64,000 bases of DNA, taken from a bacterium. GTDB taxonomy: Bacteria; Vulcanimicrobiota; JABDET01. Where the stretch lies: the NCBI GenBank assembly GCA_021800275.1, contig JAJYZB010000003.1:680-64679 (forward strand), in the 5' to 3' direction. Shown piece by piece: positions 48,455 to 62,304 of this stretch. Under the pieces are notes generated by a model that was not told the DNA's origin, made no database searches, and saw only the letters and a program-made list of their open reading frames with translations. Position numbers and translations under genes: made by a program. Each line of letters opens with the position of its first letter. The stretch's first letter is position 1.

Positions 48455-48685
48455 ATGGAACAGGTTATTACACTCCATATTGAAAAATTGCCTGAAGGGG
48501 TTTATCTGGCTACTTCCGATGAACTTCAAGGCCTTGTAGCTCAAGGACGTACTATTTGGGAAACATTGGAAATTGCTAGAGATGTTGCTCGTAAACTGAT
48601 GGAAGAGCAGAATAGCCAAAAGATACACCCCACCTTAAAAATAGTTGAAAATCGCTTTGATTATCCTCTAGTACTCGAAACTTAA
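48455..48685 (+). CDS. hicB: HicB family antitoxin
   Basis: TLHIEKLPEGVYLATSDELQGLVAQGRTIWETLEIARDVARKLME matches the HicB/UPF0150 RNase-H-like fold signature; 2-nt gap to hicA. Confidence 0.65.
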   Translation: MEQVITLHIEKLPEGVYLATSDELQGLVAQGRTIWETLEIARDVARKLMEEQNSQKIHPTLKIVENRFDYPLVLET

Positions 48686-48687
48686 AG

Positions 48688-48912
48688 GTGGGAAGACTAT
48701 CAGGATTTCATTACAGCGATATTATTAAACGCCTGCGAAAGTTAGGGTTTTCTTTCAGAAGACAGGCGGCTGGAAGTCATGAGATTTGGCACAGCATATC
48801 AAGTGGGCGCTATACCACTATTCCACACCATCCTGGAGAAATGCCAGAAGGGACACTGCGAGCCATTTTAAAACAAGCTGGCATTGACGCAGAAAAATTT
48901 TTAAAAGCTTGA
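48688..48912 (+). CDS. hicA: HicA family mRNA interferase toxin
   Basis: IIKRLRKLGFSFRRQAAGSHEIWHSISSGRYTTIPHHPGEMPEGTLRAILKQAGI matches the HicA/YcfA pattern (GSH...H....V.H.....GTL..ILKQAG). Confidence 0.7.
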   Translation: MGRLSGFHYSDIIKRLRKLGFSFRRQAAGSHEIWHSISSGRYTTIPHHPGEMPEGTLRAILKQAGIDAEKFLKA

Positions 48913-52545: not shown

Positions 52546-52977
52546 TTGGCAGAGCTTGAAGAAAAGATCCAGGATACCTACTGCTTGCAAGCCGCGAATG
52601 AAGAAGATATGAAGAAGCAGAACGAAATACAGAAACTTTTGCAAAAAGGAAGAGAGGACCCCAATATTGCAGCAGTTTTACTTTACGGGAGCAGAGCCCG
52701 ATCTGAAGAAACACCCTTTTCTGATGTGGATGTTTGTCTCATATCACGCAAAAAACCTTCAATTCAAGAAAAATTAAAGTACTTAGAATACGATCTTGAT
52801 CTCCATTTTTTCCGTGATCTTCCTCTTTATATCAGAAAAAGAGTCATTCAGGAAGGAAAAATTTTACTTTCCAAAGATGACCCATTCCTTTATGATCTGG
52901 CATACCGCACAATCAGAGACTTCGAAGATTTTAAACCCTATTACTACCAATATTTGAAGGCAGTAGAAAGTGCTTGA
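52546..52977 (+). CDS. minimal nucleotidyltransferase (MNT) antitoxin-like protein
   Basis: Pol-beta NTase motif LLYGSRARSEETPFSDVDVCL (GS...DxD). Confidence 0.65.
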   Translation: MAELEEKIQDTYCLQAANEEDMKKQNEIQKLLQKGREDPNIAAVLLYGSRARSEETPFSDVDVCLISRKKPSIQEKLKYLEYDLDLHFFRDLPLYIRKRVIQEGKILLSKDDPFLYDLAYRTIRDFEDFKPYYYQYLKAVESA

Positions 52978-53392
52978 TAAAGAGCGGATTTTAAACAGAA
53001 TCTCCATTCTTGAAAAACATTTGAAAGAGCTGCAAGAGATCATCCCAAAGAGTTACCAAAATTATCAAGAAATCAAAACAAAAAGATCATGTGAAAGACT
53101 ACTGCAGATCTCTATAGAATGTGTCATGGAAATCTGTAGTTTAATGGTCGCTGGACTTAAGCTAGGGCTGCCTGGAGAAGAAGATGATCTGATTCAAAAA
53201 TTAATAAATTCAGGTATTTTTTCTGATTCACTAGGAGCAGTTCTGAAAAAAATGAAAGGATTCCGCAACAGGCTGGTTCATGAATATGAAAAAACGGATG
53301 ATCGTCTGGTTTATGAAATTTTAAAACGAAATTACAATGATTTTGAAAAATTTAAAAATTCAATCAAAAAAGCTCTTTCTTCGCGAAAATAA
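52970..53392 (+). CDS. HEPN-domain (HepT/DUF86) toxin-like protein
   Basis: HEPN Rx4-6H motif RNRLVHEY near the C-terminus; 8-nt overlap with the upstream MNT gene. Confidence 0.65.
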   Translation: MLDKERILNRISILEKHLKELQEIIPKSYQNYQEIKTKRSCERLLQISIECVMEICSLMVAGLKLGLPGEEDDLIQKLINSGIFSDSLGAVLKKMKGFRNRLVHEYEKTDDRLVYEILKRNYNDFEKFKNSIKKALSSRK

Positions 53393-54509
53393 AAAGATTT
53401 GGCGATTGCGAATAGAACCTTAATTGTTCTCTTGAAAAGAGTGCGGATAAGCTTTTTTTACTATCCTTATCCACTGATTAAACCCCTGGTTCCCTTCAAA
53501 AAACTACTGCTGGCTTCCGCTGTGGATATTGGGATCATGAAACTGTCTTGGATTTTGCGTTTCAAGCAGCAAAAGCCATCAGCTATTTCGAGGACGCTGA
53601 ACGTGAACCAATGCCGCGGCTGCTGAAACCAATCTCCTGGGAAAAAATACGCTCTCACTTTGAAAATTTAAGTTCTGAAATCACTGCTGAGCTGCTGAAA
53701 TAAAAAAAACTATCTCGAGTATAATCTTTGCTCCGATCTTGCCCATGGCAGCAATCCTGCTGAAAGGGATTCCACTCCCTTCATTTTCACCTCTGAATGC
53801 TGTTTTTTTCCTTGAATTCCCTTTTATTTTATGGTATGATATGGGAAATGGTTTCAAAAAAGTTGAAAGTTTTTTTTAAAAAACGACTATCCGCCGCTTT
53901 TGACACGGTAAAACTATTTATGAAGCCCTTAAAACCCGTTTCCCGGACCCGTGAACTTTTCCCGAAAAAAAACTTGAAACTGCAGCGCTGCCAAACATCT
54001 TTCCTGAGTGTGTCAGACATCAGTTTATTAATCGAGGCTTTCTCACAGGCCATTTTGAAAGGAAAGTTTGCGCCTGGGCGAACCCTGAACAATCTCATTC
54101 TGTGATTGAGAACCTTGTGAGTGCGGCTTCCCTGGCTGGAAAGAGTGCATTTCAAAGTCTGAAGATGTCACTTTTCCCAATGAATATGGGAGGGAGAACT
54201 CAGTGAAAAAAGAATTATCACACAGTAGCAAAAAGTTATAAAAAGGTTCAAGGCAGTGACAAAAACATCGCATAATAAAAAACAAAATTTTAACTTAGAA
54301 GAAGAATGGGATTCTATTCTGAAAGAATTCGGTTCAAATTCTCCTCGATTCCGCAGATACAATAAAAAACAGCAAGAAAGTTGGTTTGCCTCACAACTTT
54401 TGTTGACTGTCATTGCAAAATCAAAACATGAACCATTAAAATCTGACCTGGAGAATCTTTACCTCGATTTCAAGAAACAAAGACTGAGCAGCTAGCCTAT
54501 TTTAAGTCA

Positions 54510-54947
54510 TCAAGATAATTGAATTTTTCGGGGAAAATCACTGTCTCCTATTTTATGAGTCAGCTTCCCATCGCTGCCAGTAACCGCATACTTTTCCCCT
54601 TTTTGTCTTTGCGCTTTTATCCATTTGGGGAAATAATTGCTTTCAGTGGAAATGACAGTAGAGAATTCTTGATAATTTAGACAGCAAACGCCATTATTGT
54701 TACAAACCAGCAAAATAAAAACTTCTTTGAACCCATTTTGAACTTTTTTGATTTCCTCTATGTGTGCTTCAGTGAAAGTAAATATCCACGGTGAAATTCT
54801 TTTTTGAGAATACTTAATATATATTGGTATTCTTTCGTCAATAATGTAAGAAGAATTGTTGGTTTCAATTTTCTCAAATCTACTTGCCTTTTCCCCTATC
54901 ATTCTTGAAAAGACCACTCCGTGAAAAAAATCAATATCAGCAATCAC
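54510..54947 (-). CDS. hypothetical protein co-operonic with Z1-domain NTPase (possible effector/nuclease partner)
   Basis: 145-aa ORF overlapping the Z1 gene stop by 4 nt; Cys-containing segment FILLVCNNNGVCCLNYQEF; no confident fold assignment. Confidence 0.35.
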   Translation of the reverse strand: MIADIDFFHGVVFSRMIGEKASRFEKIETNNSSYIIDERIPIYIKYSQKRISPWIFTFTEAHIEEIKKVQNGFKEVFILLVCNNNGVCCLNYQEFSTVISTESNYFPKWIKAQRQKGEKYAVTGSDGKLTHKIGDSDFPRKIQLS

Positions 54948-56812
54948 GGTCTATTTCTTCCCAAATTTTTTAAAAAATTGGTCCCACTGATTCCTAGGAA
55001 TTTATAGAAAATTCTAGCTTTCCTTTGGGCATTGTAGAACACTTTGATATGGTGAATTGCATGAGGGAACTTGCCTTTCTCGAGGTCTGCATCACCAATG
55101 AATCCTCTTCTTCTTGAGATGTTATCTTGATTTGCATCCGTATATCCACTAATACACGTGGGTTTATGGATAGCAATGGAATGGTTTCCATCAGGACTGT
55201 CCTGAGAGATAAAGTTTATTATATGCAACGGCAGCACGCCATCTCCAAGTTCATTTCTTAAACTTGAGAGCCTTTCCAATGGTGGAAGATCTCTTGAAAA
55301 ATTTGTTTCAATTTCTTGTGTAAGGACAAAGATTTCACAGCTTATTTCTCCGCTGCTCATTTGCACAGTAGTTCTATCAATGCTTGCGGCTGCGACTGAC
55401 CTTATTCGCCTATCTTCTATCCAGACTGGTGGATTACCGTTTTTCGCGGACTCAAGTGCTAGCCTATGAAAAACAAAACAACGATGCCAATCTGCGTATA
55501 ATTGCTCAGGAATTGTAAGCTCGAAATATTTAAGATAATGGCGTCTTAAGCCAAACATTCTGGCTCTTTGTATATAAGTATCCTGCTGCATCCTGGTTCT
55601 AACTGTTCTAGTAAAAAACATTGAAAGCAGGTTAACAAAAGTCACACCGCGGGAAATAATATTTCCTCCAATAGCTATAGTAAAAAGAGTTTTTGGATTT
55701 GAGGCTTTGTCTAAATTAGCCTGGTCTCTTTTACTATTTATAACAAGGACAGCACTTCTATTTATGTTATTCAAGATGTAACTTGTGATGTTATTTGCAG
55801 TGGTTGCATCATACTTTTTATTTGCTAAATCATATATTTGCCTTACATAGGATTCATACTTCCTGTTACTCGTATCTTTTAGGATATTAATCGCGTTAAC
55901 TATAACATTATGATCTCTTGAATGATCTACAGTCTTACTACTTGTATGTATAAGCATGGAATATGCTTTTTCTTTTTCGATATTTTCATTCTGATTAAGA
56001 TAAGCGACGTTAATCAAAAAACGGAATAGGGCTTCTATTAGAAATTTGGGCTCATCAGAATGTGCTGGTAAAAACTTAAGTTGATATTTTAGACTGTCAA
56101 TGCTAAGGTCAGATGGAAAGAAGTCATTATATCCAACATAATCTCTATGAGGCAGAAATTTAACCCATCTGTCATTAGCGTTTTCAAATGTGTTATTAAG
56201 ATCTAATCTCGCTGGAGTAGCGGTAACACCTATATACTTCTTTCCTTTTTCAAACAATTTCCCAATCAAACGGTTGATTTCAGTTTTATCTCCTCTATTA
56301 ATCCTGCCATTGGGACTTGCATAATCAGCCTCATCATCTATTATTATTTTATCAAATTCCCCGATTTTTCTAATTAACTTTCTTAAATCAGAAGCGTTTT
56401 TCTTGCAGAAAATAACCCAATTAGAATCCTTGATTTGATAAATTTCATCCAAAATTTCTGTATAATTTTTAGGATCAGGATCAATGCCCGCTTCTGAAAA
56501 ACGACGCAAATTTTGTTCTAAAAGTCCAACGTTATCGTTAAGTAAAATAACAATAATTTTATTCCCCTTATCCAATAGTTTGGCGGTTAACGCAATCATC
56601 ATTTCTGTTTTGCCACTTTGTGGATCACCATAAATAATGAAAGAATCTGCACCATTATCTAAATTTCTCTCGGCATCACTGACAGTTCCCTCAATAGAAA
56701 CTGTATCCTTCTCGCTCCTTTTAATACGATCAATCTGCCTTTGGTACTGAACGAATCTCTCTTTTCTATCTATAAATCTATTGATATCAAAAGTCATTCT
56801 GGTTTTCCCCAA
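54944..56812 (-). CDS. Z1-domain P-loop NTPase (SF2 helicase-like; defence-island type)
   Basis: Walker A GDPQSGKTEMM, Walker B IIIDDEAD, TAT motif GVTATPAR, and motif VI-like IAIGGNIISRGVTF...RMFGLR arranged as in Z1 domain proteins. Confidence 0.6.
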   Translation of the reverse strand: MGKTRMTFDINRFIDRKERFVQYQRQIDRIKRSEKDTVSIEGTVSDAERNLDNGADSFIIYGDPQSGKTEMMIALTAKLLDKGNKIIVILLNDNVGLLEQNLRRFSEAGIDPDPKNYTEILDEIYQIKDSNWVIFCKKNASDLRKLIRKIGEFDKIIIDDEADYASPNGRINRGDKTEINRLIGKLFEKGKKYIGVTATPARLDLNNTFENANDRWVKFLPHRDYVGYNDFFPSDLSIDSLKYQLKFLPAHSDEPKFLIEALFRFLINVAYLNQNENIEKEKAYSMLIHTSSKTVDHSRDHNVIVNAINILKDTSNRKYESYVRQIYDLANKKYDATTANNITSYILNNINRSAVLVINSKRDQANLDKASNPKTLFTIAIGGNIISRGVTFVNLLSMFFTRTVRTRMQQDTYIQRARMFGLRRHYLKYFELTIPEQLYADWHRCFVFHRLALESAKNGNPPVWIEDRRIRSVAAASIDRTTVQMSSGEISCEIFVLTQEIETNFSRDLPPLERLSSLRNELGDGVLPLHIINFISQDSPDGNHSIAIHKPTCISGYTDANQDNISRRRGFIGDADLEKGKFPHAIHHIKVFYNAQRKARIFYKFLGISGTNFLKNLGRNRP

Positions 56813-57022
56813 CTGTGTCTTCTACGCTACGGAATTTTTAGTTAAAATTACTTTTCCGGGCTGTGCTGGGATTTCCCTTTTGCGTTTTAAAGAAACACAC
56901 GAGTAAGATCAACTTAAAATGCTTGTGCCTTCACGAAACGCGGGAGAAAGCAAGGCGCAGACTATTCGCTGCTATCGTTTATTAGTAAATATCAGTTCAA
57001 ATCATTTAATGCTAATGTCTGT

Positions 57023-57739
57023 TTACTTCTTTCCATTTACAATCCGCTTTAAATCGCCAATGAACTTGTCAAACATTTTCACCCTATCGCTCTCTTCTAC
57101 GATCTGTTCGCTCATGACATAGCCGCCATCAGTGTCAAGTTCCACAATCGCCCTTCCTTTTTTTGCAGGGAACTTTTTAGTCAGGGTGCTGTCCTCATCT
57201 GGAGTTATAAAAAAGACTTTAATATGTTTTGTTACTTCATCTGAGCCAAGTTTGATTTTCCAATAACCTGTTTGAGCGATTCTTTCTCTCAGGGTTACTT
57301 TACTCGAAATAACGGCAACAGGGGTGCATGAATGTGGATCATAAATAACCAGATCTACATCAGGTAGATGATGGCCGAAAGAACCATAATCTACAAGAAG
57401 TGCTCTTTTCACAAGATTTAATTCTCGTGAAAGATGACTGTTTGTGGTTCTTTCTAATGCATTCCCTTCAACAATTTTAAGTCCTAAATTTTCGACTTCA
57501 TCTCTAATGATATGCAGAACAAGTTTTTCTAGATTTTTGCCTTTAAAAGCTCTCCAGGATTGTTCATGATCAGGAATCCTTCCTTCTGCTTTTGCTCGCG
57601 CTGCTGTTGTGCTATTCGCAAAGTCTTTCTTGTGAATCTCTTTTGCTTCTATTAAAAGAGAAGTGATGTGTCTGTAAGTTTCTTCTCCGTGCTTTCGCTT
57701 TTTATCCTGATACAGGGCCAGTAAATCATCAAACTTCAT
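57023..57739 (-). CDS. putative restriction endonuclease (PD-(D/E)xK-like)
   Basis: Gene overlaps the upstream MTase stop by 4 nt; candidate catalytic segment HLPDVDLVIYDP...VAVISSKVTLRE; weak. Confidence 0.4.
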   Translation of the reverse strand: MKFDDLLALYQDKKRKHGEETYRHITSLLIEAKEIHKKDFANSTTAARAKAEGRIPDHEQSWRAFKGKNLEKLVLHIIRDEVENLGLKIVEGNALERTTNSHLSRELNLVKRALLVDYGSFGHHLPDVDLVIYDPHSCTPVAVISSKVTLRERIAQTGYWKIKLGSDEVTKHIKVFFITPDEDSTLTKKFPAKKGRAIVELDTDGGYVMSEQIVEESDRVKMFDKFIGDLKRIVNGKK

Positions 57740-58989
57740 TGTATGTCTTGATGATTCTCTGACGAATTGGTTTCTTTCTCTGAATCTTTTTCTCTAGAGT
57801 ACTGGGTCCAATTAACTTTTGTTCTGGTAGAAGACAATTTGTTTTCAGAAACCTTCCTCATCAAAAAAAGGTGTTTGAAACCCCTTAAATAAAAGTTAAA
57901 TCTGATGGCTCTGTTATGCCACATTCCTGTATTAGATGTCTGATTCCGTCTGGTCACGCAGATCATGTCAACTGTTTCAAAATACTTACACAATCTCTGA
58001 TAAATGAGAAATCCAACAGGTGTAAATTTCTTTTTAACCCACTGATCTCCAATAAGCCAGCCTAACACTTTATCAGGTTTTAAAATCCGATGACATTCTT
58101 TCATTACTTTTTCAAGCTCATCATAAAACTCTTCAGACTCAGCCGAAATCTTGCCGATATTCCCTGGATGAGAATTATAAGCGATATTATCTCCATACGG
58201 AGAATCAATAAAAATCATATCCACACTGTTATCCTCTAAGGGGATTTTTCTCGCATCATTCTGGATGACATCAGATCTTGGAGGGGCTATATCATAAGCC
58301 ACACATTTTCGATTTTCTTCTCGGCAAACATCCAGGGTTGTGCCGCTCCCAGCCATAGGATCAACAACCAGATCTCCTGGCTCCGTGTATCTTTTTATCA
58401 TGTTATAAATAATAAAAGCAGGAGTAACTCCTGCATAACGGTTGTTCCCTTTAGGAGTTTTGCCATAACTCTGCCTTGGAAAATCCCACAATGTTGTAGA
58501 TTCAAGGGTGGGCTTGTCATCAGCAGATTTCTGAAGGTTTTTTAATTTTTTGGGTATAACAAGTTGAACATTGAGAGGATTTGAACCATTACTGCTTCCG
58601 TTTTCAAAACACTCAATCAGGATGCCTGCCAATTCGCTGCTGAGTGGCTCCCTCCAATCAATGCCCAATTGATTTAAAATTTTCCCAGAAGTCTTACCCA
58701 CTGTCGTTTTATTGGTTTTTTCAATTTTTACCTGATAGGGATACTTTCCACCCCAGGCTTCTGGAACAAGATCCTTTTTTCCATCAGATTCTGCTTTAAA
58801 TGGACCATAAAAAATATCTGAATCCAGGTTGAGCAAAAATAACCTGTCCCCCTTTTTCACCTGCAGAGCTTTTTCAGCATACAATTTATTTGTGGAGAAA
58901 AGCATTCTGTCAAAGCACTCTTGTTCAGTTTTGTTTGTGCAAGCGAAAATGTATCCCATGACTTCTGCGACTGTTTGTGCTTGACTCAT
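57736..58989 (-). CDS. DNA amino-methyltransferase (N6-adenine or N4-cytosine) with N-terminal DCD/EVE-like PUA-type reader domain
   Basis: MTase motif I VVDPMAGSGTTLDV and motif IV MIFIDSPYGD; N-terminal 90 aa GYIFACTNKTEQECFDRMLF...DRLFLLNLDSDIFYGPFKAESDGKKDLVPEAWGGKYPYQVKIE match the DCD domain consensus (GxIFxCxxxTxxEC...LF...LFL....L.G.F.A.SDG...AW...FPAQV). Confidence 0.65.
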   Translation of the reverse strand: MSQAQTVAEVMGYIFACTNKTEQECFDRMLFSTNKLYAEKALQVKKGDRLFLLNLDSDIFYGPFKAESDGKKDLVPEAWGGKYPYQVKIEKTNKTTVGKTSGKILNQLGIDWREPLSSELAGILIECFENGSSNGSNPLNVQLVIPKKLKNLQKSADDKPTLESTTLWDFPRQSYGKTPKGNNRYAGVTPAFIIYNMIKRYTEPGDLVVDPMAGSGTTLDVCREENRKCVAYDIAPPRSDVIQNDARKIPLEDNSVDMIFIDSPYGDNIAYNSHPGNIGKISAESEEFYDELEKVMKECHRILKPDKVLGWLIGDQWVKKKFTPVGFLIYQRLCKYFETVDMICVTRRNQTSNTGMWHNRAIRFNFYLRGFKHLFLMRKVSENKLSSTRTKVNWTQYSREKDSEKETNSSENHQDIQ

Positions 58990-59381
58990 TTTACATTCTC
59001 CTCCTGATGACTCTAACGGTACTCTGGTATTCCTGACACTTTAATTTTTTAGGGACAAAATCTCTCGGCTATGTGCTCATCCTGCAAAATCTTTTACTCT
59101 CAACACGATTCCTCCTTGTGGATTTCCTAAAATCACTCCACTGTGTTGGCAATTTTTGGGCGATTATATTTTTCATAGTGAATCCCAAATTGTCAGTGTT
59201 TCTTTTTGAAGTCTCAGGCGTCCGCCGACAAACTTTACGTAAGGGAGAATGTGTCCATTCTTGTCTTCTATATAAGCTGGAGTGAGAGAAGGCTCCTCAA
59301 AAGCCTCTCCAATGCCCATACTCTCTGCATTTGTCCAAAACCCACTCCAGTTGCAGTGTTCCAAAATCTCATAATTTTCTT

Positions 59382-60689
59382 TCAGTTTTTCAATCTTCCC
59401 AGGAGAGATGCTCTCTCCCTAGACAGCACAATCAGATGCTCTGTTTTCATTCGGTTGTCAGAAATTCCAGTGGCGGGATTAGTTTTGTATAAAAACATGG
59501 AACGGGAAACAATGGTGTCAACCAGAGTGATTTCATGTTTCCAGCCCAAAGAAGTGAAATGCTCGCGGAAAATCTGGCTCATTGGAATGGCATTTCCTCT
59601 GACATTGGCAGGTCCCACAAAAAGCAGCAGATATTTTCTAATTTTTTCCTGGAGAGAATTCAAAATTCCAAAGACACCGTAAAAATACCGCTTAAACATT
59701 TTTTGCAGATGAGCCTCATCAATTCCATTTAAACATTCATCATACGTTGGAGAATGAATCTGGACAACGGGCACATCCCTATAAGGAATCTCTTTTTTCC
59801 CCAAATCCTTGATGAATTCTTCAGAATATCCCATCCAGAAAAGATCCATTTTGGTGGAACGAATATACTCTTGCGCTTGCAGATAAGGAGGAGACGTGAT
59901 GAGAATGTCAGACTCTTTCTCAGGGCTGGCTGCCAGCCCATCAACTGCTGATTGAATGACGCAGTCAACAGGTTGAGGATTTAAACTCTGATATTCTTTC
60001 AATTTCAATAAAATACTTAAATAGCCATTCCAGATCATTTTGTAAAAAATATTTTTCCAATCTTTCTCCAGCAGGGTTTCTATCCGTTTATCTGCCATTG
60101 GGGACCGAGACAATTTTAATCGTTTCTCGTCATTAAAAGAAAAATAATGGGTAGTCTTTAAAAGAGGAATAAGCAGCAGATTCTTAAGTCTCTGATCTTT
60201 CAACTGATGAAAATAGCCCCAGGCTTTTGAGAGCAGATCCAGACACTCTTCTGGATGCCAATAATTTAATGATCCCCAGTCAGGAACATAAGGTTTTGAA
60301 TTTTCCACCGCTTTTTTTAAATCAATCTTTTCTTCTTCTTGAGGGCTCATGACAGCAGCTGAATGGAAAAATTTTAAGAGAGGGTTTAAATCCCAGAGTT
60401 CATAAGGATTTCCGTAAATTCTTGAGACAATCCCGGTGGTTCCATATCCTGCAAATGGATCCATAATCCTCATTCCAGAAACCCCATACGTCTTCAAAGC
60501 ATAAGCAATAACTTGAGGTATGAATTTTGCGGGATACCTGTACAATCCGAAGGTAGCATAACTGGTAGAAGGAATCTCTGGGGAGAGGCTTCTAAAAAGG
60601 ACAGGAACTTCTTTAAAAGCAGGGTTCTCTAATAAAATCTCCTTTTGAGCAGGCTGCTGGGAAAAAGCCATTTGCGCTACTTTCATCAT
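59382..60689 (-). CDS. DNA methyltransferase (alpha-class amino-MTase; SPPY motif suggests N4-cytosine or N6-adenine)
   Basis: Motif I IMDPFAGYGTTGIV and motif IV ILITSPPYLQAQEY separated by a long putative TRD. Confidence 0.65.
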   Translation of the reverse strand: MMKVAQMAFSQQPAQKEILLENPAFKEVPVLFRSLSPEIPSTSYATFGLYRYPAKFIPQVIAYALKTYGVSGMRIMDPFAGYGTTGIVSRIYGNPYELWDLNPLLKFFHSAAVMSPQEEEKIDLKKAVENSKPYVPDWGSLNYWHPEECLDLLSKAWGYFHQLKDQRLKNLLLIPLLKTTHYFSFNDEKRLKLSRSPMADKRIETLLEKDWKNIFYKMIWNGYLSILLKLKEYQSLNPQPVDCVIQSAVDGLAASPEKESDILITSPPYLQAQEYIRSTKMDLFWMGYSEEFIKDLGKKEIPYRDVPVVQIHSPTYDECLNGIDEAHLQKMFKRYFYGVFGILNSLQEKIRKYLLLFVGPANVRGNAIPMSQIFREHFTSLGWKHEITLVDTIVSRSMFLYKTNPATGISDNRMKTEHLIVLSRERASLLGRLKN

Positions 60690-60861
60690 GGTTTAGATCA
60701 CCTCCTTGTGGATATTTGGAAACAGCCCTCCAGCCATGCCTGCGGGAAACCGCAGGCATGGACTTTTACGCTGCCTCTCAACGGAGAAACAATCCAATCT
60801 GACCCCTGCTGTGAGGCGGCGCCCCTTGAACCCTCTATTCAACTAATGTCTCTGCAGAACC

Positions 60862-61098
60862 TCACTCTGGAGGGCTGATCGTCTGCAGAGCTTCTTCAAA
60901 GGTCTGCTTCCATTCATTCAGCCGATCCGGGAAGATCAAAATTCGAGAGTTTGCCCAGTTCCCATCCGCGATTCGAGATTCGCTTAGAACCAGGTACTGA
61001 CTCCCGTTTTTTTCGGAGACCCGAACATCAATAAAATAGTTTCGGCTTTTCCCTCCCGAAATTCGTCGGGTGAAAAGCACTTTCCCATTTTCTGCCAT
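60862..61098 (-). CDS. DUF3276 family (bacterial PUR-alpha-like) nucleic-acid-binding protein
   Basis: FTRRISGGKSRNYFIDVRVSEKNGSQYLVLSESR...RILIFPDRLNEWKQTFEEAL matches the DUF3276 repeat pattern. Confidence 0.5.
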   Translation of the reverse strand: MAENGKVLFTRRISGGKSRNYFIDVRVSEKNGSQYLVLSESRIADGNWANSRILIFPDRLNEWKQTFEEALQTISPPE

Positions 61099-61269
61099 GA
61101 TTTTTCCTCCTTTCTTTCTGAAATACGCTTGCAGCTGTCAGAAGGGTGAGCAGAATGTCCATCCCCCTTCTGCAGCCAGAAGCAATTCATATTCTACAGC
61201 ATCCCCTGCAAAAAAGTGTCAAAAATGGGTATAAAGATAAACATCTAAAAAAATAAAATCCCTTGTCCA

Positions 61270-62304
61270 ATGAGAAAAAAAGAAGAATTTTTAAGATTTT
61301 TTTCGATGGCTTTAAGCGCTCTGCTTTCCGCAGGAGTCCCACTTTTAAAAAGCCTTCAGATTCTGGCAGCTCAGCAGGAAAGCGCAGCGTTTAAAAAAAC
61401 GCTGGAAGGGGTGGCAGAAAAAATCTCCCATGGAGAATCCCTGTCCAGAAGCATGGAACAGTATCCTTCCTATTTTCCTGGATTAATCACAGGACTTATC
61501 CTGATAGGAGAAAAAACAGGAACTCTTCCTCAAAATTTACAAAAAATAGCGAAAATCTGCGAAAAAAACCTGACACTGAAACTGAAAATGATTTCCGCTC
61601 TCACCTATCCTTTAATTTTATTTGGATTAACCATCCTTGGAACCATTTTATTAATAAAAGTTTTTGTCCCCCAGTTTGTTCCTGTTTTTGCGCAGAATCA
61701 AGGAGCCCTTCCATACCCGACCAGATTTCTGCTTTTTATTTCAAATCTTTTCTCTTCCTCTTTTTTCTGGATTTTTCTGCTCCTGCTGCTGGCATTTTCT
61801 ATTTTTCTGTACTCTTTGATTCAAGATTACAAAATTAATTTAGGCGCGATCCTGCTGTTTCTGCCTTTCATTCGAGAAATTGTTAAAAAAGGAACAGCCT
61901 GTCAAATAACCAGCACTCTATCTATCGCTTATTCTGCTGGTCTTCCTCTTTCAAAAGCTCTTGAACTGACAGCAGACATTCTAGATCATCCAACCTTTCA
62001 GGAGCTGATTCAGAACGCTCGATTGACTTTAATCAGAGGAGAAAAGCTTTCAAGCTTCTTTCTTGAAAATTCAAATTTGATCCCTTCTTATTTAGGACAC
62101 ATGATGGCTGCTGCTGAACAAACAGGAAGAGTGGATATTCTGATGACAAAGTGCACTAAAATTTTAGAAGAAGATCTCAGCTATCTTATGGACCAATTTT
62201 CCGCTCTTCTAGAACCTGGAATTTTAATTTTTATGGGTGGAATTGTAACTTTTATTATGCTGGCTGTTTTTCTCCCCATGTATGGGATACTTCATTCCAT
62301 CTAA
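61270..62304 (+). CDS. GspF/PilC/TadC-family secretion-system platform protein (compact, two T2SSF repeats)
   Basis: T2SSF repeat signatures (LSALLSAGVPLLKSLQILA...; STLSIAYSAGLPLSKALELTADIL...MMAAAEQTGRVD) with 3 TM segments. Confidence 0.6.
   Translation: MRKKEEFLRFFSMALSALLSAGVPLLKSLQILAAQQESAAFKKTLEGVAEKISHGESLSRSMEQYPSYFPGLITGLILIGEKTGTLPQNLQKIAKICEKNLTLKLKMISALTYPLILFGLTILGTILLIKVFVPQFVPVFAQNQGALPYPTRFLLFISNLFSSSFFWIFLLLLLAFSIFLYSLIQDYKINLGAILLFLPFIREIVKKGTACQITSTLSIAYSAGLPLSKALELTADILDHPTFQELIQNARLTLIRGEKLSSFFLENSNLIPSYLGHMMAAAEQTGRVDILMTKCTKILEEDLSYLMDQFSALLEPGILIFMGGIVTFIMLAVFLPMYGILHSI

Follow-up and report, generated by a model that had tools for sequence, protein, structure and literature searches.

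What do the two overlapping genes on the minus strand between positions 54510 and 56797 encode in the window, the whole 64,000-nucleotide stretch of DNA analysed here from a bacterium of the Vulcanimicrobiota lineage JABDET01? A preliminary description of this DNA had seen in them an independent defence module, consisting of a large NTPase and a small possible effector, that merely lies beside restriction-modification (RM) genes. Our analysis confirms the observation but does not support the interpretation as a stand-alone module. The reading that we favour, with moderate confidence, is a three-part ATP-dependent RM system composed of a methylase, the large protein as a motor and the protein of 145 amino acids (aa) as a small subunit. 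Such a system would be a variant of the CglI kind, in which the combination with the small partner is new and the CglI-type motor itself is already known.

Both open reading frames (ORFs) exist as described, although the large one is likelier to encode 617 aa, from the ATG at 56797, than the 622 aa originally given. The Walker A, Walker B and TAT motifs attributed to it are found in its N-core domain, with GDPQSGKT and DDEAD invariant across 34 homologues and aligning with the QSGKT and DDEAD of N.NgoAVII. In this regard, the motor motifs of the CglI/NgoAVII H subunit have been experimentally defined (PMC5861437). The comparison with N.NgoAVII (L037:3893-5782; the identity of L037 was checked) gives 26% identity over 461 columns (BLASTP, E 2e-24), and the best PADLOC model is the REBASE-derived 'Type II helicase domain protein' (5.8e-45). 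By its sequence, the large protein of 617 aa is homologous to the CglI/NgoAVII H subunit and retains all motor motifs. The relationship of the large gene to an ATP-driven restriction-enzyme motor that has been studied before, together with its identifiable methylase partners, speaks against the stand-alone module; the uncharacterised part of the locus is the small partner alone.

The small ORF had been taken as coding, and it is. The 145-aa protein has 53 close homologues (47-99% identity), and a profile run against 1.84 billion representatives recovers a family of 820 clusters at 50% identity, 408 of them at E<=1e-10; nearly all members are stand-alone proteins about 145-160 aa long. Its sole library match, over the full length, is phrog_28860 ('unknown'). 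Pfam, NCBIfam and PADLOC contain no model that matches it, sequence-profile searches of the family against PDB and Pfam return nothing, and 100 diverse members searched against Pfam point to no consistent family, a single one matching RecU at 0.0036. The ORF represents a real, widespread, conserved and unannotated family, not an artefact.

The 145-aa protein is an obligate, co-evolving and translationally coupled partner of the motor, and the pairing is also seen in remote members of the small family. Across about 100 loci the pair nearly always adjoins a DNA methyltransferase (MTase), and for this reason we regard it as the restricting half of an RM-type system. Among the 49 loci with at least 1.5 kb of sequence on both sides, an MTase of the 435- or 417-aa type is adjacent in 45 (including L060, whose adjacent 435-type gene was missed by the distance filter), and another N6_N4 MTase is adjacent in L034 and L097, bringing the total to 47; only L014 and L015 show no adjacent methylase. 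The commonest linked methylase is of the type encoded at 59382..60689, and the methylase gene often overlaps the motor/small cassette in one operon. This linkage argues against a self-contained, methylation-independent pair resembling an abortive-infection system that would sit in a defence island by chance. The closest characterised relative is likewise an RM enzyme, and neither an AIPR nor an MZA partner is present, the NCBIfam MzaC score of the motor being 54 against a cut-off of 1500. We consider such a pair very unlikely, even counting the two loci that lack a methylase. The absence of an AIPR or Dcm partner noted earlier holds among the neighbours scanned.

What the small protein might contribute is suggested by its predicted structure. 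The AlphaFold2 (AF2) model (predicted local distance difference test score, pLDDT, 83; predicted template modelling score, pTM, 0.82) has its elements arranged as alpha-beta-beta-beta-(beta)-alpha-beta-beta-alpha, with a C-terminal sheet of three strands after them, and their order fits the PD-(D/E)XK core alpha-beta-beta-beta-alpha-beta. The best named Foldseek matches, all of them weak, are Hjc, RecU/PrfA and tRNA-splicing endonuclease in the PDB and RecU/Hjc/'nuclease' in BFVD, making a restriction-endonuclease-like fold plausible for the modelled protein. The residues conserved family-wide are G10, K45, P53, W54, F56, C82, D85, G86, R114 and G124. Among them K45, kept in 115 of 116 diverse members, lies in the strand expected to bear the ExK lysine, that strand reading (Y/H/F)xK45, and the position of the nuclease 'D' is occupied by N/D37. 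Taken together, the 145-aa protein is a putative nuclease, and the effector role suggested for it is plausible.

Based on these findings, we propose a model in which (i) the methylase would mark host sites, in the window most likely through the 435-aa enzyme and possibly also, or instead, through the 417-aa enzyme; (ii) on unmodified DNA the motor would, like H.CglI, hydrolyse ATP and translocate on double-stranded DNA; and (iii) the small protein would form a complex with the motor, replacing the R subunit as the nuclease and/or the DNA-engaging subunit. Together, motor and small protein would amount to a 'split' counterpart of the HsdR or Res restriction subunit.

The locus shares with the CglI/NgoAVII systems the homologous H subunit and a linked DNA MTase, two MTase genes lying upstream on the same strand. 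It differs in that the CglI/NgoAVII-linked methylase is a C5 enzyme, whereas the cassette-linked methylases are mostly of the N6/N4 type (the Pelagibacteraceae loci have a C5 MTase). It also differs in the partner, since CglI has a PLD nuclease of 345-358 aa that carries a B3-like DNA-binding domain. No PLD/NgoFVII-type protein occurs among the window neighbours and, conversely, the CglI-type loci L037, L039 and L041 contain no small-family member. The loci that add a GHKL HATPase_c_3 gene (L020, L058 and L117) recall the third of the operon types described by Iyer et al. (2008); that type includes a GHKL ATPase and a Vsr gene, neither of which is found among the window neighbours, and its restriction-endonuclease-fold protein is reported to carry the E-D-ExK motifs, unlike the small protein of the window.

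Several observations weigh against the proposed system. The small protein lacks the canonical E-D-ExK residues of active PD-(D/E)XK nucleases, and its Foldseek matches are all non-significant (E 0.01-0.1; template modelling score, TM, 0.4-0.56). Its codon 85 (54693..54695) encodes N in the window in place of the D present in at least 90% of family members; N85 is shared with the nearest relatives, L001 and L044, and occurs in 8 of 93 copies overall. In the motor, neither Foldseek (best E 0.076, TM<0.33) nor a sequence profile matches the C-terminal domain (AF2 pLDDT 82.7) to the PDB, and the domain does not align with the C-terminus of N.NgoAVII, so no likeness to the DNA-binding C-domain of H.CglI is detectable in sequence or fold. 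This domain is conserved within the subfamily (W459, E484, R562, H582-H583-x-K585, R595 and Y598). In addition, a lone small-family member occurs in Ralstonia P2-like phages, and the linked methylases come from very different families, a diversity difficult to square with a single fixed mechanism of recognition. The 435-type methylase, in which Type I/III-like support was sought, shows moderate conservation throughout and no clear hypervariable target-recognition block.

The missing catalytic residues bear on the alternative that the small subunit is non-catalytic and the nuclease resides elsewhere, which we hold to be doubtful. In both fold libraries the best named matches are to nucleases, matches to YTH reach a TM of only about 0.26, a sensor role has no positive support, and the HH-x-K stretch of the motor C-domain, where a nuclease might be sought, has no PLD or other nuclease fold match by Foldseek.

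The neighbouring 238-aa endonuclease (Pfam RE_BsaWI, 2.9e-31) resembles the BsaWI family of Type IIP RM enzymes, keeping the PD...SxK...E arrangement (P126-D127, S145, K147 and E152, conserved in at least 16 of 17 copies) and being paired with an N6/N4 methylase. It is a distant family member, since no PDB chain was matched by phmmer at E<=0.01. The 417-aa MTase combines N6_N4_Mtase (1.3e-26) with an N-terminal Dev_Cell_Death domain (1.1e-18; PF10539, DCD, PUA/EVE-like), and its type accompanies the BsaWI-like gene wherever flanking sequence permits. The fusion recurs in BsaWI-type systems (L127:3254-4399, L128:3214-4473 and L130:3033-4466) and may join a modified-base reader to a methylase; short methylases of 222-236 aa without DCD occur in L004, L007 and L009. 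The endonuclease and the DCD-methylase make up a classical Type II unit that can be separated from the motor/small cassette and often shares a locus with it. The data suggest that the two are linked more often than by chance, a shared target site being one possible reason. A four-component enzyme dependent on BsaWI would account for this linkage as well, but we judge it unlikely given that the unit is separable; were the pair merely an accessory of the neighbouring Type II enzymes, the gain in knowledge would be modest. As for N85, the idea that D85N is an inactivation tolerated where BsaWI is present was rejected, N85 being found in 3 of 17 loci with BsaWI and in 5 of 76 without.

Features of the motor/small locus and its surroundings (positions in the window)
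Feature	Coordinates	Strand	Remarks
Motor gene, 617 aa	54944..56797	-	Preferred start ATG at 56797
N-core (DEAD) RecA-like domain, aa 44-197	56207..56668	-	Contains Walker A, Walker B and TAT
Walker A GDPQSGKT, aa 57-64	56606..56629	-	
Walker B DDEAD, aa 154-158	56324..56338	-	
Motor C-terminal domain, aa 448-617	54947..55456	-	Subfamily-conserved; fold unmatched
Small-partner gene, 145 aa	54510..54947	-	Overlaps motor-gene end
BsaWI-family Type II endonuclease, 238 aa	57023..57739	-	Pfam RE_BsaWI
DCD-fused N6/N4 MTase, 417 aa	57736..58989	-	Pfam
Second DNA MTase (435 type), 435 aa	59382..60689	-	
MNT (Polbeta/NTP_transf_2)	52546..52977		Downstream of the pair
HepT	52970..53392		Downstream of the pair; with MNT, a toxin-antitoxin pair adjoining the island
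HicA (1.7e-18) and DUF1902/HicB-like pair	48455..48912		

The endonuclease and both MTases lie upstream of the pair on the same strand. Promoter and terminator scans over 54000..61300 did not exceed shuffled expectation and are uninformative on operon boundaries. Between the small gene and MNT-HepT, short ORFs (81, 108/102 and 79 aa) at 53797..54495 may or may not be coding; all four were scanned against Pfam without a match, and those other than the 79-aa ORF have no match in PADLOC, NCBIfam or PHROGs. The defence-island context described earlier stands for the endonuclease, the two MTases and MNT-HepT, which adjoin the pair. It does not extend to the HicA/HicB-like pair, 5.6 kb off behind housekeeping genes (pterin-4a, epimerase and acyltransferase), with which the island is not contiguous. 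The content of the island is variable, since the syntenic relative L001 carries neither MNT-HepT nor the 435-aa methylase.
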